64,000 nt of DNA from Bilabrum cf. latius. Its lineage: Eukaryota. The stretch spans positions 434,001 through 498,000 of the forward strand of contig OZ237735.1 of assembly GCA_965178125.1 (NCBI GenBank), given 5' to 3'. Numbering within the stretch: position 1 is the stretch's first letter; each line of letters opens with the position of its first letter. Made by a program: the position numbers and the translations under genes. The notes under the pieces were generated by a model. It did not search any database, was not told the DNA's origin, and was given only the letters and a program-made list of their open reading frames with translations. Positions 1,881-58,788 of the stretch are shown piece by piece.

Positions 1881-3188
1881 ATGTTGACTTTTCGTATCGA
1901 TGAAGTGGCATGTCCCTTTGCAACATCATTAATCCAACAGTGTCTATCCGTTAGAATTTACAAAACATATTCGCAGGACGTCCTCCAGATTCTTCTTGGG
2001 CTTATTATCGCGCTGCTGATGCTTGGGCTTGGCAGCACCACGCAGATCGAAGAGTTTAAACAGCAGGTGTACAACTGGCCAGCGCCGTTGATCGGATTCC
2101 TGTGTCAGGTAGTACTCATGCCTCTTCTCTCCTTCGCGTTTGTCGAGGCTTTCGGAATGTCGGATGCGATCTCGTTAAGTATCATTGCCATCGGTTCCAC
2201 GCCGGGCGGGTCAACTTCCAATCTCTTCACGAAGTGGTCGAAAGGTGACCTTCCGCTGTCCATTACAATGACTGTATGCAGCACAGTCCTCTCCTTTGGT
2301 ACTTTGCCCGGTCTGCTGGCCCTGTACGGGTCGCGCTACACTTCGGATGACCTACAGATTCCGTTCGGCACCGTGGCGCAGTCGCTGCTGCTGGTAGTCG
2401 TGCCGGTCTCGATCGGCATTGCCGTGCGCTACTACTCCGCCTACTGGGCCATTTGGTGCGAGAGGATCGGCACTGCCGCAGGCATCATCTTCATCGTCGC
2501 GGCGATGGTCTTCGGGTCGATCACAGAGCAGTCCATCTGGAACGCACCGGCCGGGTCGTACGTCATCGGAGTGCTGCTGCTCCTGACCGGTGCTTGCCTA
2601 GGTTATCTCCTCTCCTGGATATTCAAGTTCCCTAGGCGGCAAGCACGCACGATCGCGCTGGAAACGGGCATCCAGAATAGCGTGCTGACGATCGCGATCC
2701 TGACCCTCAGCTTCCCAGTGAAGGACGGCGCAGAAGAAGAGGCCAGCAGGGAGCTGCAGCAGGAAATCCTGCAGTTCCCACTGCTGTATTCGGTGTTCCT
2801 TATCTTCGACTCCCTGCTCCTCACCGGTATCTTCTACTTTGTGGCAGAGTGGGACCCGGAGGAGGAGAAGGCCGCAGCCAAGGCCTACGAGAAGGCGCAT
2901 CAGGAGGCCAGCGAGAGGGAGATCAACGGGGGAAAGACGAACGCGGAGATGGAGGAAGAAAAAGAGGCCAAAGAGCTAGCGGAAGGCGGTGCAGCTGGTG
3001 CGTCGGCCGACAAGGCGGACGACTTGGAGGAGGGCGGCGGAGAGAAGAAGCAGGGGCAAGCGAACGGGGGCGAGGGTGTCGGCGCTGCTTCAACCACGCC
3101 TAGCAAGAAGGACGAGGACACAGCGATCGCTAAGAGTAAGAGTGGCATCGCGCCCACCGGCTCTGACTAGGTGGTCGCTGAGGTGTGA
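1881..3188 (+). CDS. Bile acid:Na+ symporter family transporter (SLC10/BASS)
   Basis: Motifs LMLGLG, GFLCQVVLMPL, STPGGSTSNLFT..GDLPLSITMT, RTIALETGIQNS; multiple TM segments. TAG 3168-3170 read as Gln gives TGA stop at 3186-3188. Start uncertain (possible acceptor cgcag at about 1976). Confidence 0.9.
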
Positions 3189-3326
3189 CACAGCAAGGGC
3201 ATGAGAAAGCGAATTCCTGTGTGCGCGAAGCTCAGACAAGAGAGAGACTGCGTGTGTACATGTGCCAGACTCAAGCCGGCAAAACTTCTGCGTGATTGAC
3301 TGTTCTTCATCGATACATCCTCTGTC

Positions 3327-11200: not shown

Positions 11201-11711
11201 GGATATGCACAATGCTAGCTTGACGAACGCGATATGGGGGCATTATCATGAGATTGCTGCTGTGTTTGCCAGCCTAGAGGGAGTACCGCCAACGGCCGTC
11301 CTGGAGATGGTGGCGAATCGAAGACCATCGATGGCGAGGCAGGCGAAGTGCACGACCAACTTTGCGTCAGTGGAGACCATTGCTAACTATTCGAGCGTGC
11401 GAGAATTCAAACTGGCCCAAGCCGATGCTTCCCGCTCGGCAAGACTCACGCAAGCTGGCTCCAGAAAGCAGCTGTCTGCTCGAAGCAGCACCCGGTCAAA
11501 CTCTGGGCTCATTAGCCTGTCTTCGTCTCGCGCACCTGCGGTACACTTGACCAGTGGGGGACGGGTCGAAGCATCCCACTCGGTGCTTGCATCAGTGCAG
11601 AGCAGCACTGCTGGTGCTGTTGTCTTGCTTGAGGCCAGGCGGCGCACGGCGGAAGGTCTCGCAGGTCGTGCAGAAGCAATGTGCTAGTAGATATCGCCTG
11701 AGGAACATTGA
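8213..11711 (+). CDS. CCZ1/HPS4/INTU-family longin-domain protein (Rab GEF subunit-like); introns 8283-8374, 8505-8596
   Basis: ESILYFYP...QHVNLCAGVADFM and REVEPNLWMALVL resemble the first longin domain of CCZ1/HPS4. ORFs at 8706, 9294, 9708, 10422 and 10773 share a frame and are separated only by TAG. TGA at 11709-11711. Confidence 0.65.
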
Positions 11712-11781
11712 AATTGTGCAGAAAAATATATATCATGTTTGTGGAGAATCAAATGTTCAAGGCAAGGCCTTTGGGAGAGGA

Positions 11782-16352: not shown

Positions 16353-16431
16353 AGATGATGCACTGCATGATTAAAAAAAGGTTTTTATTTGCATAACCCT
16401 CTTTCGTATTCATATCCAGGGCAACAGGCAA

Positions 16432-37838: not shown

Positions 37839-38036
37839 CCCGATCGCCTGCGACTGACTTTGATACATAAACGTTTTGAATGTATTTTTTAAAAATTGAT
37901 ATGGGTATTGACTGCTTTGTCGTAAATTTAAGAATTGAATTAGTCTATTGCGACCGAACCCAGATTAGGATCGGATCAAAGCAGATTCCCCACACTCCGA
38001 TGAACCGAGCACAAACCACCTCACATAGCTTGAATC

Positions 38037-40976
38037 ATGAATTCCGAAAGTCAGGGACAATACTCCATGGCACAAACTGGTATCGCAGATAACTCAAATG
38101 AGGATGTTGATTCTGCAACACCAAAAGCGTTTCTTGGGGTAGTGCTGCACCGCAGCGCCAAGGGTACTAGTACAGCGAAAGCCCGAGCAAGCCTAAGCAA
38201 AGCCACTGCATCCAAGTAGCTATCTACTGGAGAAGTTGTTAGGCTTGGTTTCTCGTTCTTCGATTCATCCAAGTCATCCATTCTGGTTGGGTCTGTGGTT
38301 GTCCGAGGAGATGAGCTCGACAGCGTTTTGCAACGCGAGATATCAGGAAAGCTGCTCGCGGGCAGAGAGCTGGCAGGGGTCGTGTGCATGAGAGATCAAG
38401 CTCACATTGTTAAATCTGCTTTGAGACCGAATTTATCGACATCAATTTCGTCTGCAGACAGCAGCGGTTCAGCGGCAAGTTCTGTCAGCGGGCCGCAGCG
38501 AGCAGTACTCGACACGGTCCCTGCTGCTAGGGGAAAGTCAGACGAGAACGCTGCCACTATTCTAGGCACACTCTTCGAAAATATAGTTGCATCCCTGGGA
38601 AGCAATCCAACGCGACAAGAGTATCGGATTGGAGTGGCGTCGGTGATGGACTTCTCAGATGCGGCACAGGTTGTATCGTGTGGGATGCTGATAGACTATC
38701 TCAAACGACTGAAGCTCATCGGGGCGGACGGTGCATCACCCAGTGCGTTTGACCAGACTTCGAAGCCGCAATGCTTAGTTCGGTCTCTGCAGCCGGCTCG
38801 CTTGAGCGAATATGTGTTCACTGACGACGCGACCCTGCACGCGTTACAGGTCTTCTCTAGGGACGACCACCCTGTTGTGTCTCGAGGCAAGCAGAGATCT
38901 AAAGAAGGCGTATCAATGTACTCAATTTTTGCAGACCGACTGGCCAGGGCAGACTCTAGAGGCAGACTTCGTGAGATGCTGAAGCAGCCATCCTGCAGTA
39001 TGGTCACGCTGGGCATTCGCCAAAGCGCAGTTCAGGAGCTCGTTGATGCCTGGTAGACATGCCCAGAAGCTGTCAACAGGCTCCAAAAGTGGATGGCGCC
39101 AACTTCACTCCTAACGACGACAGCCAGAAGCTTCCAGAAGTACGATCACTCCAAGCAACTCTGGTTGCGCCTCAAGTCTGCAGTGGCAGGCAGCCGCGCT
39201 GCACTGGAGGGCCTCCGGGCGGTGCTCTCTAACCTCGAGTCAACTCCTACGGATGAATCAGGTGCAACATCTGAACAGGAAACTTCGAGCACTGGTGAGT
39301 TCATCGGCGCTGTGATCACCGATGTTGAGGAGTGCGAGCAGACCATGGGGCTGGACAGGCAGCTGTCCGTATCCATCGATTGGGACCGCACCGCTGCAGC
39401 ATCTGACAGAGTTTACGTTGCTACTGGAGTCGACGATGAACTGGATCAACTAAGAGAAATTCAAGAAAGCCTGCCCGTTGAACTTGAAGCTGCGAACCGG
39501 AGGATCCGAGAGGAGGTTGGTGCTCGCCTCGGTGCCTTCGAGCTCGAATCGGTGCCGCAGCTCGGGTGCCTCATGTCTCTCCCAAGGACGTCGATCCCGA
39601 ACAACACTTCAGAGGGCTAGGAAGCTCTCCAAAGCTTCAAATTTATTCTGGAGCAGGAAGACATGGTCTACTTCCGACACGCTGAGACCGAGGCGATTGA
39701 CGCAAAGTACGGGGACCTGCACCAAAAGGTGCGGGACCGAGAGGACGCAGTTCTCAGGTCGCTCCACACAACCATTCAGGAAGCAGTCGAGGACATGATG
39801 TTCTTGGCAGCTATTTTGGCAGACCTAGACGTAATGCTTGCGTTTGCTTCGGTTGCAGTCGACTTCAACTTCGTACGACCGACGCTCACCAATGAGAGCC
39901 CGTCTTCAGTGATGGAGTAGTGCTGGCACCCGATTCTTGAATACATTCACGAAAGGTGAGAGTATTGAGATAGGCTGAAAGGAAGTGTAATAGACTGCTG
40001 CACTTCTTTATTGTACAAATGTTCCGTGCAAGATTGCATCTACTTGCCCCGCAGCGCAATCCCAAACGACGTGAGCATCGGCGGCGCAGAGCCAGCAGTG
40101 GCCCTAATCACTGGGCCAAACGCATCGGGAAAGAGCGTTTATCTCAAGTCTGTCGCATTATGCTAGTACTTGGCTCAGATTGGAAGTTTTGTCCCGGCAC
40201 GCCAAGCAACTATCGGCTTAGCATCCGGGATCATTGCGTGCATGAGCGCACCTGAGTCGTGAGTCTGCTGCGCGTCACCAAGAGAGTAACTGCCCTATTC
40301 GTATTGCAAGAAACGGCTCATACGCTTGGATTCAATCTCATACTGCAGAGTCACATCTGGACTGTCCTCATTTCAACACGAACTGGTTGACGCGGGACGT
40401 GCCCTCGCAATGTGCGACAACCGCACGATGATCGTGATGGACGAGTTTGGCCGCGGGACGCACTCCAAGGACGGAGCTGCGCTGCTTGCAGCCCTTGTCA
40501 GGCACTTGTCGGAATCATACCCAAGCGCAAGGGTTCTGGTTGCTACGCATTTTACCGAAGTATTGGACGAGAGGGTGCTCGGAATGGCGATCAAGCTGTC
40601 CGACCGGGCGCCAGGTGAGCACGACAAGAGCGGTGCGGCTGGAGCACAGACCGACGGGGGTTCCGACATGGTGTCTACGGAGGGCACAGCAAAGTAGCGG
40701 CTCTAGGAAGCAAGTGCAGCTGGCGAGGCAAGGATTGCCTGCTTTTGCATGCAGGTCCGCTTTCAAGATGCACCGCAGGAGAGCATCGGGAGCAAGCGTG
40801 CTCGTGACGACTCACGCAGCATGCAAGATGTCGAACCGCTCTTCCTCTTGGCACGAGGCATCTGTGACGGGTCATTCGGAATAGAATGCGCAAGCCGGGC
40901 GGGCGTTCCCTGGAGTGTCTGCCTTCGAGCCAAACAAGTGGTGGGGCAGCTGCATGCTGCAGATGGGTGCGAGTGA
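38037..40976 (+). CDS. MSH5: Meiotic MutS homolog 5; introns 39956-40054, 40259-40348
   Basis: TLHALQVFSRDDHP..KEGVSMYSIF (MSH5-type), LADLDVMLAFA, Walker A ITGPNASGKSVYLK, MDEFGRGT, ATHF. No mismatch-binding domain I evident. TAG-joined; TGA stop. Confidence 0.85.
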
Positions 40977-41110
40977 TCGCTGCCAAGGTGATCGCGATTC
41001 GTAATTCATCCACCCGATCATTAAATGGTTTAGTCTCGGTCTTATGACAGTTTCATGTCCCAGGGTGTGTTTAAAGTCGAAATGATACAACAAAGAGTGT
41101 TTTAGTTCAA

Positions 41111-44100
41111 TTACAGCGGTGGGAGAGAACCACGCGCCGCGACCCGAGATCGACCCAAGCCGCTGCTTGCACGCGAGCGTCGCTGACCTGGCTTTGCACC
41201 TACCCCATCGTGCCTACCAACAATACCGCTTGCATACGTGGCACCATACCTCTACACTAGCGCTCCAGTCCCCCCTGCATCCCTTACTGAGCCAAGCTTG
41301 ATGCCTGTGCTGTTCCGCCCGGCCGATCTCTTGCTTGGTCTCGCACGCTGACCAAAGCCAGCCATACCCAGTGACGGTCCTGCGGTTGGACGCCCCTTTT
41401 TCATGGTAGCGCGACGATGCGATCGCGATTTGCTTGCACCGCCTGCTGCATTCTTACGCTTGCGAGGTCGAGCAGCCTTGCGCTTGCCTGCGCTAGCCTG
41501 CAGCGCGGCAGGGCTCATCGAGCCGGCGGGTTCCATGTAGAACGCGCTGCCGCTCGCAAGCTCAGTGCTCTGCAGTGCTTCGTTTCCCATCGGTGCGTAT
41601 GCAAACGTGGCTGCTGCCGCATTTGCATCGATATCACTGGTGGGAATACCAGCTTCGTGTCCGCTATTCCTGCGGCTGCGCTCCCCGTCATCGGCACCAA
41701 CGTCAACGTCTCGCTCGTCGCGCCGCTTTTGCGCATCCACGTACTTGAGCACCCTGAACTCCTTTTGCATCATGTCGTGCCACCTGCGCTCACCGCTATC
41801 GTACACGACGAGGTGCATGCTCCTCGGCGCGTCGAATGCAGCCACCGTGCCCTTGAGCAGCGTGCCGTACCTCGCGGCTCGGATGGCGACCCTGCAGCCC
41901 GCATCTCTTCGGTCAAATCGGAACCGGCCAGTTCCAGGCCCTTTCTTTGATTTCTTTGGCTTCTTTTTTGCCTTGGCTGCTTGTTTCTTAGATGGCTTGG
42001 CGCCACTTGGCTTCGCCCGGGTGTACGCAACGATGTCGATGTCGAGGGCCCCAACTCCGCCTGCGTGCAGCTGGCTCAGCCTCCAATCGGCTCTCTCCTC
42101 ATCGGGTGCTTCCCGCTTGCCCATCGCACGCCCATCCTTGTACAGGTCTCCCGATCGGATCTCGCTGGTTGCGCTTGCTCGGCGGGTCTTCTTCCTGCGA
42201 ATTTTCTTCTTTTTTCCTGCCCGCGCTGCGGCTGCCGGGGACCTCGACGAAGACGACTACGCCCCGGCTCGTCTTCTTGCAGATAAGAGTGCACTGCCCT
42301 CCCCGTCATCGGAGTCATCGCTCCCAAGCACGACCCCACCCAAGCCCAAGCGGGCGCTGTTACTCTCAGGCGACCATCCCCTGGATGGTGCGCCGCCATC
42401 GGCCGTCCAGCCGCCCGATCCTCCCGAGTCTGCAAGCAGTGCATCGATCGCCGCCGCGCTTCGCTGGTGGTGCTTGGCGCGGGGCAGCCGCTGCTGCGAT
42501 TGCTCCAATCGCGCTTCGCCGGGCCCAAATATTCTTGGACCATCGGTTCGGCCCGTCCCTATCGCGCTTCTATCTGTGAATGCAGCCGAGCCACGGCGGG
42601 CGGATACCAGCCCATCCTGGTTGAGTGGGTCTCCCACAGAGGAGGCTTGCCCGTTGGAGTTCGCCGAAGATGGAGGCACCGGTCCTAGCCGCCGCCCTGA
42701 CTTGGAAAATACAAACTGCTGCAAGTCTGCGGCATCAACCCTTGGCCCTTCGGCCAGCCCTACAGGAAGCGGCGGCACTGGCGAGCTAGGCCCGGTCTTG
42801 ACACCGGCGTGGAGCTTGTTCAGCATCTTCTGCAGGTTCTCCTTCTCTTTCTTGATGGAGCGAACGCCGCGCAGCAGCTCATTCTCCTGCTAGAGAATGC
42901 TCCTCCGCGCCTCATCTGCCAGCTCGGTCAGCTTGACCTGTGCCACGATGCCCTTGGACTCTGACCTGACGATGAGGGCACCCTCCGCATCGCGCGCCAC
43001 CTGCACGTCTTTGCCACGGAATGAGTTGGCCAGCCGAGTGATCCGTTGGCCGACTTCAGTCTGTTCCTCATCGCTGTCAATCAGGTTCGCCAACGCCACA
43101 TAATACTTCACCTTGTCGTTGTTTGGCTCGAAAGGGCGATACAGCTCGTCGCTGCCGTCGTCCTCCGAGTCGCTCCCCGATGAATCTCCGCTGTCCTCCT
43201 CGTCGCTGCTCCTGCTCAGGCTCCCCTCTTCTGCATCCGAGTCCTCGGAATAGTCATCCGAGTACTCATCAGAGTTGCCGTCGTCATCCGCCTGGTTGAT
43301 GCCCCCGCCGGGGGCAGCAGCCCTCGGTGGGACAGGGTGTGTGACACCGCTTCTTGCAGCTCCGGTCGCGCTCTCGTCACCGCCAGCAGAAGTCTATGAG
43401 TAGTCCTCGTCGTCATCGCTCCCAGAATAGCTGCTCTCGGACAGACCATCTGGAACTCCCAGGGCCCCGGATCCCGCCACAGAGAGAACCTCGGGCTTGC
43501 GACGAGCCCTACGCTCGCGCTCGACGTGGCGGGCAGGGCTGCCGGCGGCACTCACTGGTGACGGCAGCTGCACGCGGACCACGCCCGCGCGATCATGATG
43601 CGGACTCAGGGCTGGCAGGTGGGCGTGGCCGCTCCCAGTCGGACTGCTTCCCGGAGAAGACTTGACTGGCTTCCTACCCTTCCGTTTTCGTTTCGAGACC
43701 TTGCGGTGCGTTTTGGCGGGTCGTCGCGCTGCGATGCCGCTCTGCTTGCCTGCGCTCTTCGGTTGCTTCGCTTTCGTGGATGTAATGGGAGACACTGAGA
43801 GCCTGTTGTCGTGTCTCGGAGGCCTCGGCTGCCTGGCAGGGCTTCGGCTACGCACCGGCTGGCTCACTGCCCTCGGGCTTCGTCCCGGTGCCCGGCCTCT
43901 CTGACCTAGAAGCTGCCTGAGCCTGTCGTTCTCTGCTCTAAGCTCGATCACCAGCTGCGCCAGCTCTGCAGCCCGCCGTTCCGCCCTGTTCAGGCGCCTC
44001 ACTTTGGATCGAAGCCTGTCAAGTTCCTAGTTGGCCTGGGCCAGCAGCACCGCATCGTCGATGACCTCGTGAGGCCGCACATTCACCAGCACTTTCCTTG

Positions 44101-45400
44101 CCCTGTCTGCGAAGACCATGGTGCTGATGGAGTCTTCCTTGTTGGGAGCAGTGGGACTGATGGTCGCAATCACCGTGGTGCGCGCCGTGCCGCCCAACGA
44201 GTCCTGCAGCAGCCTCGTCAGCTTCGAGTCTCGATAAGGTATGTGCCTGCGCCCCGAATCCGTGAGTGCGCCAATGCAGTTGCCCAAAGCTGACAGGCTC
44301 TTGTTGATGTGGGTCAGCTCCTTGGCTCGCGCCTTGCCCAGCTCCAGCTTGACGTCCCATTTTTCGCTGCCGGCGAGGTCCACCAGCGAGAGTTTCGCGC
44401 GCCGGAGCACCTTCACCCCGCCATCCGTGCCCTGCTCGACCACGACGGCCAGCTGGAGAATGGCGTGTGACCGCGAGCTGGCGGCGTTCAGCTCGGTGGC
44501 ACGCACGGCTCGGTTGCGCGAGCCCCTGTGCAGCACGCGCATCACTCCCACGGTCGAGTCTACGACCACCTGAGAGAGCCCTTCCACGTACACCTCCGAG
44601 GACCTTCCCGCTCCTCTCTTCTCCCGAATGGCCAGCGGCTTGGCCCTCCTCGCGTCTGCCAGCAGGTCGAAGCACTTGTCATTGTACAGCTCGATGTAGG
44701 AGGCGGTGACGCTCGCTGAGAATGTGCTGTCCTGCTCCTGTCCGCTGCCGATGAGGTTGAAGATTCTCTGCACGGCCCTCGGCATGATGCCCCAGCCGGG
44801 CTCTGCCTTCGGATCCGTCGAGTCTCCGGCGCGGCGGGGGGTGGTCGCAACGGAGGGCGGGCTGCTTCCTGCCGCCGAACCGCTTGCGCCGCTCGCACTG
44901 GCCGCTGAGGGCAGTGATATTGATGCGGCCGCGGACGGGGCCGCGCCGCTTGCTTGAGATCCTTGGGCCGGTGACGGAGGCGGCGGATCAGCCGATCGTC
45001 CTACCTCGGCGGCTCGGCCGCGAAGAGGCGTCGACTGCGCTCGAAGCCTAGCGTCTACGGCCAACAGAGCATGTGCGCTCGTTTCTCCACTTGGAGTGGA
45101 TTCTAACCCTTCACCAAGCATGCTATGTGTTTTCCCGGAGCCCGTTTGCCCGTACGCGAACACTGTGGTGTTGATTCCTTGTAGCACGCCGTCGATGTGG
45201 GAGCGAACGACGCCAAACACATCATCCTACGTCGATTCTGGTCCAAACACTTCATCAAACTCGGCTTGGTGGTTCCCGACCCGAACCACAGCTGCATCGC
45301 GATCCGCCCGTGCTACAACGCTGTCGGGGTCCTGCGAGCGCTCAAACGGCAAAACGGGCCGGACTCGCACGCATACCTGGATTGCTTCGCCAGCTTCCAT
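41111..45400 (-). CDS. N-terminal motor kinesin, about 1429 aa, with acidic/low-complexity tail and Tudor-like segment
   Basis: VCVRVRP, FDEVFGPEST(TAG)DDVF, AYGQTGSGKTHSM, SYIELYN, NAASSRSH, LVDLAGSE, HIPYRDSKLTRLLQDSLGG. Six fragments in one frame; ends TAA 41111-41113. Confidence 0.9.
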
Positions 45401-45525
45401 GGATCGCTTTGTTTTACTTTCGCCTAGCACTGCTTTAATGCCATCGAGCCGTTCGTAAACGAAATCGAACGAAACCGGAACTCAAAACAGTATACACCAT
45501 ACATCCCTCCACTCGAGGCTATCCA

Positions 45526-47130
45526 ATGATTTTCTCCCTCACTATAGCTATTTGTGTCATAGTATTTGCCCACTCGGCGGCGATATGGCCGAAGCCTCAG
45601 TCAATCAAGTGCAATGGAGAATTGACTGGGGTGTCTTGCATGAAACTGCAAACTGCGTTGCCACCAAGCTCTCAAGACTATCAGACACTAAGTGCGAGAT
45701 TCTCTGAGTATCAAGTACTTGTATTTGGGAACGGTGGGGGTTGCACTGCTCAAGATGGTAGGTGCTTGAACGTCAAGGTAGATGTGGCGCACTCACCTGT
45801 GGTTTTTCAGTTTGGGACGGACGAAAGCTTTGAACTGGGAGTAAATGCGAACGATCTCGATGTCTCCATTACTGCGTAGAATATATGGGGTTCCATGCGG
45901 GCTTTTGAGACTCTAAGTCAGCTTGCATCGAATTCTAGCGCGTGGAGCAACTAGACCTTCTCGGCTTGTATGATCCAGTCGTCGCCACGATTTTCTCACC
46001 GGGCGCTAATGGTGGACATCGCTAGGTATTTCTTCAACGCTAGTTTTATCCTGCATACGCTGGACGCAATGTCGTACAACAGCCTGTCCGTGCTTCACTT
46101 GCACGCAACAGATGCCCAATCGTTCCCGCTGGAGCTGCCCGGCCTCGGGTACATGGCGAGCTACGGCGCGTTTCCTCCCCACCAATTCGGGTGTCCCTAC
46201 GACAACTGCACGCTATCAGCAGCAGATATGAAGAGTATCGTCGACAGGGCGCGCGCGCTCGGCATCCGCGTGGTCCTGGAGCTGGACACCCCCGGCCACA
46301 CGCTGGCCTGGTCGGCCTCGCCCCAGCTGGCCGGCGTGTCTGTGCGGTCGTGCTACGTGCCCATCCTCTTTAATAAAGACTCGGTGCCCATGGATCCGAC
46401 CAACGCCACGACCAACGCCACCATCCGAGCGGTTTGGAAGGCCGCGATCGGGGGCGAGGACCCGCTGTTTCCCGACTAGTTCGCCTTCCTGGGGGGCGAT
46501 GAGGTGGACTTCGACTGCTGGAAGAACACACCACGCGTGGCCAAGTGGCTGCAGGAACAAGGCATCACTCCGGAGCAGGCCCAGGCCCAGCTGGTTGCAA
46601 CCGCCCAGTCCGCGGTCGCGTCCCAGGGCAGAATCCCCATGCAGTGGGAGGACGTGCTGCAGCCTGGCAGTGGCGCGGTCCTCGAGCCCAGCACGGTCAT
46701 CGCCGTGTGGCGCAACGCGACCAAGCTGCTACCGGTCTCCCGGGACAGCGGGTACCGCACGGTGCTGTCTGCCGGATGGTACCTGTCTGGGAACCTGATT
46801 ACGCCCAGCCAGTGGTTTGATTTCTACGGGCAGGATCCGTTCGATGGGAGCGGCTGGACCGAGGCGAGCAAGAAGCAAGTGCTCGGGGGTGAGGTGAGCA
46901 AGTGGGGCTGCAGCGGGCTGTGCCTGACGCCCACGACGGCTGACGATTTCGACTACTTTGTCTGGCCCACGGCCTCTGCAGTGGCCGAGGTGCTGTGGAG
47001 CGATCTGCCGCCGAATCGGAGCGCCAACGGCACGGAGGCTCGCGATGCGTACGGTCGGCTGGTCGCGCAGGCGGAGCGCATGCAGGCTAGAGGTATCGCT
47101 TCCAGGATGCCTGCTTCGCTCCAAGCATGA
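45526..47130 (+). CDS. Secreted/lysosomal beta-N-acetylhexosaminidase (GH20), 534 aa
   Basis: Signal peptide, IWPKPQ, WGSMRAFETLSQL, PRFSHRALMVD, ELDTPGHT, FPD(TAG)FAFLGGDEV. Three in-frame TAG; TGA stop. Confidence 0.9.
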
Positions 47131-50697: not shown

Positions 50698-50804
50698 GGC
50701 CGCCGCATGGCTGCTTCAGGCGCGTGAACCAAAAAGTCGTAGGTTAAACAACAACATCTACATCCAATCGCAATCACCCAATTCGTGTGACCCCGATGCC
50801 CGCA

Positions 50805-53800
50805 TCAGGTAGCGAAGCTCCTTCCCGAACTCTACCAACCGCTCCCACCCTGCTGCTGCGCCCCCGCACCGTAGCCCTTGTATGCCGCTCCACTGAAGGA
50901 GGCCCTGGACCCTGGCACCTGGGATCCGGCCCCACCCGACTGCTTGGAACTGCTGCGCGCAAAGGCTCCTGCAAAGGAAGGGGGTACCCGAGCAGAGTAG
51001 CCGAATCCGTGCCCGGACGAGCTGCCGCTCCGGGCGTGAGGTGGTTCCGCACCGGCCGCGGCGCTGCGCTCTGCAAAGGCGGCATAGGCTGCCGACGCGG
51101 ACGACGTGTGTCGCCGCTGCCTGGATCCCGATCGTCCGGCTGCAGCAGCAGCGGCAAAGCCGTGGTAGGCACCCCTCGTCGTGTGCCGCCGGCTGGAGCC
51201 GCCCCTCGCCCCTGCGCTCCCCTTTGGCTTAAATGTGGGTGGCAGCTCCCCGTCCTCGTGAGCCTTGAAGGCGTCCTGCAGCACGGCAAAGACGCGCTGT
51301 GCCTCTAGTCTTTGCTGCAGTGGCGCAGTCGCCACCTTGTCTGGGTGCACGACCCTCACAGCCTTCAAGTAGGCCTTCTTGATGGCGGCTGCGCTGGACC
51401 TGGCATCCAGCTCGACCCCCGAGGAGTGCTCCCCCCAGGCGATGACCTGCGGGAGGGACTGTAACATGCCTCCGATCGTCTTGCCGCGCGCCCAGCTGGC
51501 CACCCTGGACTCGATCTCCTCCCTCAGAGTGTCCTTGGTGGCTTCCTCCTGCTTGGCCCGATCGGCCGTATCGTTGATCTGCTGCACCCTCTCCGCGTGT
51601 CTCCTCTTGTGCCTCAGCTTCTCCCCGATGATCCTGGCTTCGACCTTCCGCGCCATCTCAGGATCGGGCTTCTCCCACCTCACCGCCCTGCTCACCCGGT
51701 GGTAGTAGTAGACCTGCCCCTCCGCCGTGCGGGCCTGCAGCCAGTTGTCCAGCGCCGCCGCCGGGTCCACCTGGCTCGGGCTCACCTTGTCCGGGTCGAA
51801 GGCGCGAGCTGTAGGGGCCTTGGGGTTCGGCGGGGACTCGTATCTCTGTTGGAGCTTGGCAGCAACGGCAGACGCGGCGGCCTGCTTGTCTCGCAGACCC
51901 GAGTGGTGGCCATGGGAAGGCTGCATGGGCGAGGGGCTGCGCTGCTTGTCTCCTTGCCACTTGGCGCGAGCAGCGGCAGCTTGCTTCGCCATGGCCTTGA
52001 CAGCGTCGTCAACCTGGCTTCCAGCAGCGGCCGAGTAAGCGCCCGGAGCTGGCCCGGCTCCGGTGCCCGTCGCCGGTGCCGTGCTCGAGGCCGCGTCGTC
52101 GTCGTCTCCGGAAACGGATGACCGCCTGGACGAACCCATCGACCTGGGCCCGGGCGAAGAGCTGGACACTCCATCCAGGAAGTTCTTCGCCGTGCCCACC
52201 TCGACCGCCTTGACCAGTCTCGACCTCAGCTCCGCCTTCTCCAGGCAGTCGGCGTGCGGGATGCCGGCGCGGTCCAGGAGCCGCTTCAGCTGCGCCACGC
52301 TCATGCGGGACACGGCAGCCACAGCCTGTTCGGACAGCCGCGGATCGATGCTGCCTGCCTGGGGCTTGGTGGGGCTGGTCTGGTGGGACCGGTCGCCGGT
52401 CTGCCCTGGGGGGCTACCTCCCGCGCTGCCGATGTCCACAGACTCGGCTCTTTGTTTCTGCTCCGGCGTGGACGGTCCACTGCGTGTTCGCTGCCTAGGC
52501 AGGGAACGTTGAAGCCTGCTGCCTGGCCCGTCCTCGCTGGATTGAGCGGCGAAATCAAAGCTCTGCTTGCGTCTTCCAGCAGCCTGTGCCGCCCCCGAAC
52601 GTGCCTGCCGGTGCATCCGCGCCGACCCGGACACCGGCCCAGATCCAGGCCCAGCATCGCGCGGGACGCTGGCTGGTGTGCGCGGAGTTGCAGGCGATGA
52701 ATGAGACTCTGGCGACTCCTGCTTGCCTTCAGGTTCCGTGCGAGAGGCTGTGGACCCCGACCGTGCCGATCCAGGCGGGGTGGGTCCGTGCGAGCCGGCG
52801 CGTGACTGCGGGCTAAGCTCGCTTTGCGCAGCTGAGGTGACGCCGGGCGGGGCTGGACGAAACCCGCGAGACCCGTCCGAAGCGACAGAGGTGGCCGCAG
52901 AGGCTGGCTTTGGCTACGGGGGCACTTGCGTTGGCGTGCTAGGCGACAAGCTCTCCACCGAGTCGGTCTCAGCGTGCTCATCCCCAGAGTCGCGTGCCTG
53001 GTTACTGGGCGGTGTTGCACCTTCGCCGTCGATCGAGTCGCTCTGCTCGAATCCGATCTTCCTCGCGTGGTTCCGTGCAGCCATCGCAGCTAAGGCTGCT
53101 GGTGATGGCTGAGTAGGAGGAATCCCCGCTCCTGGCATGCCATCGAGGTCGAGGCCTCTAGGTTTGGATGACCTGGCGCCCGCGACTCCATGCAATGGGG
53201 GCTTGGTCTTCTGGATGCCGTGCTGATCATCGTCAGCAGTGCCAGTACGTTGTGCTGATTGCGTTGGTTCGTGGCCGGGCGTTGTTCCGAGCCCGGAGGT
53301 GCTCTGTGATTGCCTTGCAAGTGCCCTCGCCTCCTTCTGGTACTTTTCCTTTAGCTTGGATTCCTCTAGCAGGGATGCTTGCGACGCCTTCACCATCGCC
53401 CTCAGCTCCCCGAGCTGGGTCTGCAGTGCGTCGAGCTCCTTCTTGGTGTGGCTTGCCTGTTTCTTGTATGATTCCCTCTCCTCCCGCACCCTCACCACCT
53501 CCTTACGGGCCACGTCCAGGCTCTTCTCGCAGCTGCTGATGATCTCCTGCCTCCACTTGTCCGTGTCCTTCTCCCACCCGCGCATCACCTCCTCATACTC
53601 AGCCCGCGCCGCGCCCACCTTCTCCTCAATGGCCTTGTCCTTGTCCGCCTCGGCTGCCTCGAGGAGCTTCTTGGCAGTGGTCTGCTCCTCCGCACGTGCA
53701 GCAGACACAGCTTTATCCAGCTGCTCCTTGCTCTGCTTGGCAGACTTCTCGTGGTAGGACTGCCACTGCTCCCCGAGGCTAACGGCCTCATCGTGAGCCT

Positions 53801-57306: not shown

Positions 57307-58693
57307 ATGGCAGCCGTTGCGTCCTCTAAGGGTGCAGAGGTAGATGCTACAAGTGATGGCATCAGGCCATACTTCCGGGCCAAGCTTGATGAAATGGAAA
57401 TTAAGATTCGCCAGCGAACCTAGAATCTGCGCCGTCTGGAGGCGCAGCGGAACGAGCTAAACTCGAAAGGTGAGATTCAACGGGGCAATAGCGCATGAAA
57501 TACATGTTGTGCGCAATAACTGGTCCTTGAATTGTCACACAAGAGCATCATTCTGGCGCCACGACAGAGGTCGCTCCATTCAACCAGTCCTTTCAAACGC
57601 CCCGTGTTCGCGCACTGATTACCGTATTGTCACCACAGTTAGGGATATTCGGGATGAATTATCGATGTTGTATCAGCATGGATCGTCCGTAGGCGAGGTT
57701 GTGAAGCCTATGGGTAAGGACAAGGTGCTGGTGAAGATGGGAGGCGAGGGCAAGTATGTTGTTGGGCTAGACAAGGAGATTAAAATCTCTCAGTGCACAC
57801 CAGGAGCCCGGGTTGCGCTTCGATCAGACAGTATGGAGCTTCACAAGATCTTGCCAACCAAGGTGGACCCGCTGGTGAGCTTGATGCGAGTGGAGAATGT
57901 GCCGGACGCGACGTACGACATGGTAGGCGGGCTTGACAAGCAGATCTAGGAGATGAAAGAGGTTATTGAGCTGCCAATCAAGCACCCAGAACTGTTTGAG
58001 GCTCTTGGTGTGGCTCAGCCGAAGGGGATTCTCATGCATGGCCCCCCCGGTACAGGGAAGACCTTGCTTGCTCGCGCCGTGGCACACCACACCGAGTGCA
58101 CGTTCATCCGCGTGAGCGGCTCTGAGCTGGTGCAAAAGTACATCGGGGAAGGCTCCCGCATGGTGCGAGAGCTGTTCGTGATGGCACGGGAGCACTCGCC
58201 ATCCATCATCTTCATGGATGAGGTGGACTCGATCGGGGGCAAGCGAGCGGAAGGCAGCAAGGGCGGCGACAGCGAGGTGCAGCGCACGATGCTGGAGCTT
58301 CTGAACCAGCTAGACGGCTTCGAGCCCAAGCAGAACATCAAGGTAATCATGGCCACGAACAGAATCGATATCCTGGATCCCGCGCTGCTGCGACCCGGCC
58401 GCATCGACCGGAAGGTTGAGTTCCCGCACCCGAACGAGGCTAGCAGGCTTCACATCCTGACAATCCATTCCAGGAAAATGAATCTCATGCGAGGCATCAA
58501 CCTGAAGAAGATCGCGGACAAGATGACGGGCGCATCGGGAGCTGAGTGCAAGGCAGTGTGCACGGAGGCGGGCATGTACGCCCTGCGAGAGCGGCGCATT
58601 CATGTCACTCAGGAGGACTTTGAGATGTCCGTCGGAAAGGTCATGCGCCAGGACGCGGAGAAGGACGTTTCGTCGATCAAGCTTTTCAAGTGA
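57307..58693 (+). CDS. PSMC5: 26S proteasome regulatory ATPase RPT6; intron 57470-57638
   Basis: T(TAG)[62 protein letters not shown]-terminal KLFK. Two in-frame TAG; TGA stop. Confidence 0.97.
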
Positions 58694-58788
58694 TCGGGCG
58701 TGCTATCGCTGTTGCTCGGCTGTGGCCGTGTGGATTGAGTGGTGAAATACGCGAGATTCTAATCCGATGGATACGAACTTTCAATCTT

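Follow-up and report, generated by a model that had tools for sequence, protein, structure and literature searches.

Does UAA still terminate translation where UAG has become a sense codon? The question is raised by one gene end in the window, that is, in the whole 64-kb stretch of DNA analysed here, in which a kinesin gene with in-frame TAG codons closes on TAA. We find that UAG is very probably read as an amino acid, most likely Gln, and that UGA and UAA stay terminators in cytoplasmic translation. The window is compact, with few introns and a GC content of about 58%. Judged by its sequence, it is probably nuclear DNA of a eukaryote, a stramenopile near the bicosoecids, with best protein matches that point to a stramenopile close to Cafeteria.

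The kinesin is recognized by a Pfam match to the motor domain (E 5e-92) and by matches to solved kinesin structures (E 4e-58). Its stop-to-stop frame, 45481 to 41111 on the minus strand, comprises 1456 codons, six of them in-frame TAG, with TAA at the end. The gene and its 3' surroundings have the following features:

41114–45400, minus strand: kinesin coding sequence, from the ATG (45400–45398) to the last sense codon, with six in-frame TAG codons.
41252–41254, minus strand: last in-frame TAG of the kinesin, a sense codon; Glu in the related protein P0126, and the point at which the standard-code open reading frame (ORF) of P0124 stops.
41114–41251, minus strand: C-terminal tail of the kinesin, 46 codons from the last TAG to the TAA, coding in the kinesin frame.
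41111–41113, minus strand: TAA closing the kinesin frame; of the window's 16 gene ends, the sole one to use TAA.
41102–41104, minus strand: second in-frame TAA, two sense codons past the first.
40977–41110, no strand: AT-richer gap between the convergent stops of the kinesin and a MutS-family gene, 134 nt, GC 0.41.
40974–40976, plus strand: TGA stop of the convergent MutS-family (meiotic MSH-like) gene.

The initial annotation had placed the end of the kinesin frame at this TAA, with a second in-frame TAA at 41102 and AT-rich sequence beyond. Both codons are where it put them: the plus strand reads TTA at 41111–41113 and again at 41102–41104, so that the two are TAA on the minus strand, the second at 41104–41102. 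Beyond the first TAA, the kinesin frame meets further TAA codons at +3, +23, +27, and +30 and a TGA at +31. GC falls from 0.68 in the 90 nt upstream of the TAA to 0.34 in the 50 nt downstream. A coding-versus-intergenic score gives +0.19 per codon in the kinesin tail and −0.90 after the TAA. The composition shift at the 3' end of the gene thus sits at the TAA, not at the last TAG. By the same score, the last 47 codons of the 15 other genes range from +0.12 to +0.44, and the 23 codons after their stops from −1.02 to +0.10.

The spacing of neighboring genes can be read in the same way. With the TAA as the kinesin stop, the gap to the convergent MutS-family stop is 134 nt, and with the last TAG as the stop it would be 275 nt; the other five convergent pairs in the window have stop-to-stop gaps of 70 to 138 nt. 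The gap at 40977–41110 must hold the 3' untranslated regions of both the kinesin and the MutS-family gene. A contig from another study (run X5) is collinear with the window over 41079–42332, with 0 differences and 0 gaps, and ends at 41079, 32 nt past the kinesin TAA. The kinesin tail and its TAA are therefore not an assembly error.

Homology fixes this gene end independently of composition. P0126, the protein of a more distant relative, aligns with the kinesin past its last TAG and up to the residue preceding the TAA. In a HMMER search of 1.84 billion representatives, P0126 is matched with E 1.3e-9, query residues 109 to 228 of 229 corresponding to its residues 110 to 229 of 231. BLASTP of the kinesin end against P0126 (E 3e-19) carries the match to the end of the query (residue 229 of 229) and to residue 230 of 231 in the subject. 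The 46-residue tail alone matches P0126 with E 4.5e-6, at the spot that continues the upstream alignment, while its +1 and +2 frames give weak matches elsewhere only (E 0.077 and 0.007). Since P0126 aligns in frame up to the TAA, we regard this TAA as a homology-placed terminator and not as a chance stop. The same alignment through the tail rules out the last TAG as the true kinesin stop. A TAA end fixed by homology is seen for one gene, the kinesin, which is also the only one of 16 gene ends in the window to be TAA, and P0126 was compared as a protein only. Scans for DNA of relatives gave no match, either in metagenomes with the kinesin or in genome contigs and viral contigs with the alignment of its C-terminus.

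The absence of TAA from coding frames points in the same direction. We counted stop-class codons in 18 ORF models that run from stop to stop, so that some 5' leader codons are included in their 19,573 codons. TAG occurs 140 times in frame, with at least one in 17 of the 18 models, and TAA and TGA occur 0 times. The dozens of internal TAG and the lack of internal TAA seen at first inspection are thus borne out. Out of frame, the same ORFs contain 55 TAA in the +1 and 78 in the +2 frame. Among the long ORFs, 17 of 18 match a Pfam family at E ≤ 0.001, some of them under Pfam's own cut-off. The longest ORF has 694 codons with all three stops and 4950 when TAG is no longer counted as one; without TAA as a stop it stays at 694. 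If TAA were used like TAG, scaling by CAA/CAG (256/543) predicts 66 in-frame occurrences (probability of zero, 2e-29), and the lowest A/G ratio, that of TTA/TTG, still predicts 24 (5e-11). A border-free scan for stop-class codons with coding-like flanks of 40 codons on both sides returned 69 of 1100 TAG codons, 59 of them in the sense frame of annotated genes. It returned 1 of 394 TAA codons, antisense to RPA1, and 13 of 1768 TGA codons (12 antisense and 1 intergenic), with 0 in the sense frame for either.

Apart from the kinesin, every gene end in the window is TGA, as first noted (15 of 15; 15 of the 16 ends overall). Three TGA ends fall at or near the C-termini of solved homologues: the Rpt6 alignment includes the final residue of human PSMC5, and those of RPA1 and the hexosaminidase come within a few residues of the end. 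TAA stops are rarer than base composition alone might predict. The probability of observing at most 1 TAA among 16 ends is 0.026 if TAA has a share of 30%, 0.14 at 20%, and 0.52 at 10%. The rarity of UAA as a stop (1 of 16) is probably the result of a G+C-rich genome favoring TGA. The initial annotation rested the case for TAA as a stop on one gene end and internal absence. That case is now stronger, with a tail of 46 codons conserved in P0126, and the claim that UAA still stops while UAG is sense, so that their meanings differ, is supported by this tail together with the TAA-free coding frames.

Alignments at the TAG positions suggest that UAG is most likely glutamine. Two sites are the most informative:

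45227–45229, minus strand: TAG in the kinesin motor domain, at a strongly conserved Gln position.
57421–57423, plus strand: TAG in exon 1 of Rpt6 (proteasome ATPase), at a position where Gln is the commonest residue in orthologues.

The kinesin site, the only TAG site strongly conserved as Gln, is Gln in 113 of 116 aligned kinesin homologues (the other three have a gap, Gly, and Tyr) and in three of the four solved kinesins shown. At the Rpt6 site, 15 of the 48 full-length orthologues taken from metagenomic loci have Gln. Human HEXB has Gln at the FPDxF site of the hexosaminidase TAG. P0124, from a relative and 92% identical, has Gln at one window TAG (“SILxQENEL”) and Lys at another. Glu stands at the last kinesin TAG in P0126, Lys at a less conserved Rpt6 TAG in 57 of 80 orthologues, and Ala or Gly, Ser, Arg, and Lys at the DNA-PKcs sites compared with human DNA-PKcs. 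A homologue search with DNA-PKcs returned three matches only. Overall, the residues found opposite TAG at sites other than the strongly conserved one include Lys, Arg, Glu, Ser, Ala, and Asn, and no aligned site is dominated by Leu. Conservation is poor at the TAG positions of the kinesin neck, hexosaminidase, RPA1, Rpt6, and DNA-PKcs. The metagenome scan with Rpt6 yielded 80 loci, all at most 82% identical, and none of these is therefore from the window's organism. Read as Gln, UAG would make up 14.9% of Gln codons in the window (140 of 939).

Much as the initial annotation had inferred, such a code would probably depend on a tRNA-Gln with anticodon CUA, which pairs with UAG and not with UAA, and on an eRF1 that has lost or weakened its recognition of UAG while keeping that of UAA and UGA. 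The same combination, tRNA-Gln(CUA) and an altered eRF1, is predicted for Iotanema spirale in the published account, in which the GTS motif of eRF1 carries T32G (PMC5304391). No tRNA genes were found in the 64-kb window, and none of the 18 ORF models matched the eRF1 family in Pfam.

The alternative that survives best is that UAG is dual: sense inside genes and a terminator near the mRNA 3' end, as in the ambiguous codes of some ciliates. Some genes that appear to end at TGA would then really stop at a TAG a few codons earlier, and UAA would hardly matter. We consider this quite unlikely. The fuller version, in which UAG is Gln inside genes and a terminator in the last few codons, with UGA the main stop and UAA nearly abandoned, is likewise unlikely. 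The evidence comes from four TAG codons, in three genes, that lie six to nine codons ahead of the TGA:

3168–3170: near-end TAG in the SBF gene.
11685–11690: two near-end TAGs in the longin-domain gene.
50832–50834: near-end TAG in the DnaJ gene.

Four TAG in the last 10 codons of 16 genes compare with 1.14 expected (P = 0.029), an enrichment of four codons in a post hoc test; counted per gene, 3 of 16 have one (P = 0.095). TAG occurs just once in codons 11 to 50 before the stop (1 of 640). The 3' untranslated regions must be very short, given that convergent stops are 70 to 138 nt apart, and the standard-code ORF of P0124 ends exactly at the last TAG of the kinesin. Against this, that last TAG lies 46 codons from the gene end, and the tail downstream is conserved in frame with P0126, which makes it sense. 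The SBF, longin-domain, and DnaJ genes are without available C-terminal homology, and none of the window's gene ends needs a TAG stop. If UAG were position-dependent, the window would come from a GC-rich stramenopile with an intermediate, partly ambiguous code.

UAA might instead be unassigned, that is, neither decoded nor efficiently released by an eRF1 that serves UGA only, and hence avoided, with the kinesin TAA a tolerated oddity. This is very doubtful. It would fit a codon that occurs 0 times in frame and ends 1 of 16 genes, as well as the second in-frame TAA two codons past that of the kinesin. However, the conserved C-terminus of the kinesin ends exactly at the TAA, and GC richness alone can make TAA rare. 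In the UAG-only codes described in the published accounts, moreover, UAA is a stop, and the main one.

We give as little credence to an ending of the kinesin in another frame, reached by a short intron or a +1 ribosomal frameshift, at the following codon:

41107–41109, minus strand: TGA in the +1 frame, overlapping the stop region (TGTAATTGA); rejected as a stop.

The +1 frame is open from 41283 to this TGA (41109–41107). A candidate intron of 88 or 100 nt has a GTAAGG donor at 41287 and an acceptor at 41200 or 41188, and introns are present elsewhere in the window. Codon usage gives a weak signal in the tail and slightly favors the +1 frame (0.27 versus 0.195 per codon, about 3 nats), as does GC phase, with GC at codon positions 1, 2, and 3 of 0.70, 0.72, and 0.48 in the tail and 0.62, 0.52, and 0.64 in coding sequence overall. 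However, the match of P0126 to the tail is in the kinesin frame, not the +1 frame, and extends to the last residue; this alignment rules out a shift to the TGA by either the GTAAGG intron or a frameshift. All four recognized introns in the window have GTGAG donors, and the three clear acceptors read CCGCAG or CCACAG; neither the donor nor the acceptor of the candidate conforms. P0124 is identical in the kinesin frame across 17 residues past the candidate donor. The X5 contig spans the candidate intron unbroken, which argues against splicing only if X5 is RNA; the run is marked “probably DNA,” and an RNA nature of X5, X6, or X8 is a guess.

Least credible is that UAA and UAG are both Gln, with TAA too rare in a GC-rich genome to fall within 64 kb: the two codons are described as moving together in most known nuclear reassignments (PMC5304391), but the count of in-frame TAA is 0 where 24 to 66 are predicted, the same ORFs contain many TAA out of frame, and the kinesin would have to cross five TAA in 30 AT-rich codons that score −0.90 per codon.

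With UAG as Gln and with UAA and UGA as stops, the window code is a further case of the already known UAG-only type (the Iotanema type; NCBI table 15 pattern). The split between UAA and UAG had at first been presented as rare. This is outdated, as UAG-only reassignments have been reported in several lineages since 2017. The combination of UAG as Gln with UAA and UGA as stops was published in that year for Iotanema (PMC5304391) and later for ciliates (PMC11687900). In Iotanema spirale, as described by Panek et al. (2017, PMC5304391), UAG stands at Gln positions, in-frame UAA and UGA are absent, and both codons end genes, as in the window. Its main stop, however, is UAA, with 104 UAA and 15 UGA ends and 7 of 126 transcripts truncated (PMC5304391), whereas UGA closes 15 of 16 genes here. 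Iotanema is also a metamonad known from a transcriptome, while the window is genomic DNA, rich in GC, and its best protein matches are to stramenopiles.

Among phyllopharyngean ciliates, Hartmannula sinica and Trochilia petrani are reported to have reassigned UAG alone, putatively to Gln, with UAA a stop, as here (McGowan et al. 2024, PMC11687900). There UAG accounts for 18.5 to 31.8% of Gln codons, compared with 14.9% in the window, and the preference among stops is reversed: UAA is preferred (91.9% of H. sinica genes) and UGA has 8 to 13% (PMC11687900). The rhizarian exLh and three TARA phyllopharyngean genomes are described as having UAA and UGA stops and a decoupled UAG, like the window (PMC5304391, PMC11687900), but their UAG is Leu, whereas the conserved site here is Gln (113 of 116). 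Codes in which both UAR codons are Gln (NCBI table 6: many ciliates, hexamitin diplomonads, and some green algae) share UAG as Gln and UGA as a stop with the window. They also read UAA as Gln, whereas TAA in the window is never in frame and ends a gene. The ambiguous codes of Condylostoma, karyorelicts, and Blastocrithidia (NCBI tables 27, 28, and 31) are, like the window, described as using a stop codon as sense, and the window probably shares very short 3' untranslated regions with them. In those codes, the same codon also terminates by position; for UAG in the window there is a weak post hoc hint of this only.

The window would represent one more origin, probably an independent one, of a code that gives UAG and UAA different meanings, which strengthens the view that the eukaryotic translation machinery can separate the two codons. 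Its UGA-dominant stops are unlike the UAA-dominant usage described for the published UAG-only codes compared here. Because UGA dominates, the split between UAG and UAA is independent of a UAA-dominated, AT-rich genome. If the placement among stramenopiles holds, this may be the first nuclear code change reported for the group; none was found in the literature searched, which had subscription journals outside its coverage. Gene callers that assume the standard code shatter such genes, as in the truncated public ORF P0124. Organisms with such a code may also serve as hosts for viruses that share it.

The sequences after the stop codons have some features in common. TTAAA follows in 5 of 16 flanks, against 0.25 expected, and a T/G-rich pattern in 8 of 16, against 9.5% of random 70-nt windows; these flanks are AT-rich and shared by convergent pairs, and we draw no conclusion from the counts.

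No RNA runs were listed as containing window sequence. Contigs of X5, X6, and X8 do not cover 38000–40669, in the MutS-family gene, which is not evidence of anything. Next to the hexosaminidase ATG (45526), contigs of X5 and X6, which come from two studies, begin at 45521 and 45527, while X1 continues; contig starts at this ATG are a weak hint that X5 and X6 are RNA.

The codons TAG and TAA are used in sharply different ways in this DNA. The longest open reading frame (ORF) obtained with the three standard stops has 694 codons; it is unchanged when TAA is taken as sense instead and reaches 4950 codons, in DNA-PKcs, when TAG is. We counted in-frame codons in 18 stop-to-stop ORF models (19,573 codons, including some leader codons before the first ATG). 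A Pfam family match at E ≤ 0.001, in some cases below Pfam's own cut-off, was found for 17 of the 18, and the genes represented include those for an EF-hand protein, an SBF transporter, a ubiquitin hydrolase, RMI1, DNA-PKcs, a MutS homologue, kinesin, hexosaminidase, RPA1, Rpt6, and UTP20. Within the window, the initial annotation's claim that internal TAA is absent against many TAGs holds throughout these models.

Stop-class codons in the 18 ORF models, by frame
TAG: 140 in frame; 211 in +1 frame; 168 in +2 frame
TAA: 0 in frame; 55 in +1 frame; 78 in +2 frame
TGA: 0 in frame; 311 in +1 frame; 451 in +2 frame

If TAA encoded glutamine and were used like TAG, the CAA/CAG ratio (256/543) would predict 66 in-frame TAAs (probability of none, 2e-29). 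Even the lowest A/G ratio of any codon pair (TTA/TTG) predicts 24 (probability of none, 5e-11). Because TAA served as a border in defining the ORFs, we repeated the test without borders, scanning each stop-class codon on both strands and requiring coding-like codon usage in the 40 codons on either side. TAG passed at 69 of 1100 occurrences, of which 59 lie in annotated genes in the sense frame, 5 are antisense, and 5 fall in unannotated stretches that may be further exons, like Rpt6 exon 1, for example. Only 1 of 394 TAAs passed, antisense to RPA1, as did 13 of 1768 TGAs (12 antisense and 1 intergenic).

Of the window's 16 gene ends, 15 are TGA, as had been proposed, and 1 is TAA. Alignment to solved homologues confirms the C-terminus ahead of the Rpt6 TGA to the last residue, and those of RPA1 and hexosaminidase to within a few residues. 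Six gene pairs are convergent, with 70 to 138 nt between their stops (3189-3326, 11712-11781, 16353-16431, 40977-41110, 50698-50804, and 58694-58788); with so little space, their 3′ untranslated regions must either overlap or be very short. In the 70 nt after stops, TTAAA is enriched (5/16 flanks; 0.25 expected). T/G-rich runs such as TTTGTTGT are also enriched after stops (8/16 flanks versus 9.5% of random windows), resembling the TGTTTGTT element that Blastocystis has near its poly(A) sites. Introns are short (about 87 to 168 nt for those with two clear ends), and the three clear acceptors read CCGCAG or CCACAG.

Recognised introns: starts near 39957, 40258, 19730, and 57470; donor GTGAG in four of four

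Two in-frame TGAs, one closing the first MutS ORF and one upstream of the RMI1 ORF, belong to such GTGAG donors and are not real stops.

The single TAA end belongs to the kinesin gene. The plus strand reads TTA at both 41111-41113 and 41102-41104, so that the minus strand carries, as originally described, two in-frame TAA codons with TTG AAC between them.

45481 to 41111, minus strand: kinesin stop-to-stop frame, 1456 codons, closed by TAA
45400-45398, minus strand: first ATG of the kinesin frame
40974-40976: TGA stop of the convergent MutS-family gene, 134 nt from the kinesin TAA

This frame holds six TAGs, no TGA, and no internal TAA, and its product contains a kinesin motor domain (Pfam, E 5e-92; solved kinesins, E 4e-58). 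An Ala-, Ser-, and Pro-rich insert of low complexity, ~100 residues long (44800-45130, minus strand; residues about 100-200), splits the motor after the P-loop; the alignment to solved kinesins falls into two blocks (about residues 4-100 and 203-452). Near the C-terminus, a block of ~65 residues (GRFRFDRRDAGCRVAIRAARYGTLLKGTVAAFDAP...RWHDM...FRVLKYV; residues about 1195-1262, window about 41615-41815, minus strand) has no Pfam match and is nearly invariant in the two relatives covering it, P0124 (a public protein) and P0125. Beyond the TAA, the frame meets further TAAs at codons +3, +23, +27, and +30 and a TGA at +31, and GC is 0.68 over the 90 nt upstream of it but only 0.34 over the 50 nt downstream.

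Two other ends for the kinesin were considered. The last codons could be read in the +1 frame, which is open from 41283 to a TGA at 41109-41107 inside TGTAATTGA and could in principle be reached by splicing from GTAAGG at 41287 to an acceptor at 41200 or 41188. Weak codon usage in the 46-codon tail slightly favours this frame (0.27 versus 0.195 per codon), and tail GC at codon positions 1/2/3 is 0.70/0.72/0.48, versus 0.62/0.52/0.64 for coding sequence overall; base composition left the choice of frame unsettled. The candidate donor, however, differs from the GTGAG of all four recognised introns. Alternatively, the gene could stop at its last in-frame TAG (41254-41252), 46 codons upstream of the TAA, exactly where the standard-code ORF of P0124 stops. 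This would widen the convergent gap to 275 nt, whereas the 134 nt obtained with the TAA falls within the 70-138 nt of the other five pairs. Per codon, the coding-versus-intergenic score is +0.19 for the stretch from the TAG to the TAA and drops to −0.90 past the TAA; the other 15 genes score +0.12 to +0.44 ahead of their stops and −1.02 to +0.10 downstream. Score drop, gap length, and intron donors favour a kinesin end near 41110.

The question was decided by a full HMMER search that used the last 229 kinesin residues as query; its matches include P0124 and P0126, which is 231 residues long and comes from a more distant relative. The P0126 alignment starts at the conserved SDIDANAAAATF block, crosses the last TAG, where P0126 has Glu, pairs its ...RFGSTYASSIAAR... 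with ...RYGATYASGIVGR... in the tail, and matches its ...FPPL to ...LPPL, the four residues that immediately precede the TAA (BLASTP E 3e-19); P0126 ends one residue later. Searched alone in the kinesin frame, the 46-residue tail matches P0126 where the upstream alignment continues (E 4.5e-6); read in the +1 and +2 frames, it finds only weak similarity elsewhere in P0126 (E 0.077 and 0.007). On this basis we reject both the TAG end, the tail beyond it being conserved in frame, and the +1-frame TGA end. As judged from the alignment, the last TAG is sense, the frame is unshifted, and the predicted protein ends at the TAA, in agreement with the proposal that UAA stays a stop. An assembly indel in the tail is ruled out by a contig from sequencing run X5, of a different study, which covers 41079-42332 with 0 differences and 0 gaps. 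If X5 were RNA, itself a guess, the tail would be unspliced and the transcript would end 32 nt beyond the TAA.

TAG very probably encodes glutamine, judging by aligned homologues. At the kinesin motor TAG (45229-45227), Gln is found in 113 of the 116 homologues that align there, among the 120 best. It is the commonest residue at the Rpt6 exon 1 TAG (57421-57423; 15/48 orthologues) and occupies the TAG site of the hexosaminidase FPDxF motif in human HEXB. P0124, 92% identical to the kinesin C-terminal region, has Gln at one TAG site and Lys at another; it was predicted with the standard code and so cannot itself contain TAG. At less conserved sites the homologues have Lys, Arg, Glu, Ser, Ala, or Asn, and leucine dominates none of the aligned sites. 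Such mixtures are commonly the behaviour of glutamine positions: in the available text of PMC5304391, Gln dominates only about 20% to 44% of conserved alignment positions at ordinary Gln codons, depending on the conservation threshold.

Three genes carry TAG only 6 to 9 codons upstream of their TGA.

3168-3170, plus strand: in-frame TAG near the end of the SBF gene
11685-11690, plus strand: two adjacent in-frame TAGs near the end of the longin-domain gene
50832-50834, minus strand: in-frame TAG near the end of the DnaJ gene

The last 10 codons of the 16 genes hold 4 TAGs in 160 (1.14 expected from the overall share of 0.72%; small numbers and a post hoc test), and codons 11-50 before the stop hold 1 in 640. 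These counts give a slight hint that UAG use may depend on position, though that seems unlikely.

Codes that read UAG as sense but keep UAA and UGA for termination were first documented in 2017 (PMC5304391), so the present case is not the first of its kind. That source gives UAG as Gln in Iotanema spirale (gene ends 104 UAA, 15 UGA) and as Leu in the rhizarian exLh (56 UAA, 15 UGA). PMC11687900 added, in 2024, Hartmannula and Trochilia, in which UAG is Gln, and three TARA ciliate genomes, in which it is Leu. In H. sinica and the TARA genomes, UAA, the preferred stop, ends 91.9% to 98.3% of genes. UAA is thus the main stop in all these lineages, whereas here UGA closes 15 of 16 genes and UAA is rare; a GC-rich genome and a probable new host lineage further set the case apart. 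UAG and UAA could be split by an eRF1 that rejects UAG and keeps UAA, together with a CUA-only suppressor tRNA, a mechanism proposed in the initial annotation and likewise in the available text of PMC5304391.

Two proteins of Cafeteria roenbergensis match the kinesin best (426 and 397 bits), and the named matches that follow include many oomycete, one Hondaea (labyrinthulomycete), and brown-algal proteins. The source is therefore probably a stramenopile, possibly near the bicosoecids, a placement by similarity within one protein family rather than by phylogeny. In the window the genome is compact, with alternating strands, few short GTGAG introns, and a GC content of about 58%. No nuclear code change in stramenopiles was reported in the literature searched, which excluded subscription journals, or in the available text of a 2024 stramenopile review. 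Sequencing runs from three studies, under three different organism labels, contain contigs identical to 38000-46000 of the window over the parts they cover, which suggests that the organism turns up alongside others. Among 80 metagenomic Rpt6 loci, 8 have stop-class codons inside the tblastn alignment, including L060 (10 codons), L080, and L032; some may reflect other genetic codes, and others may fall within introns that the alignment crosses. One Rpt6 orthologue has a stop-class codon exactly at the window's TAG position.
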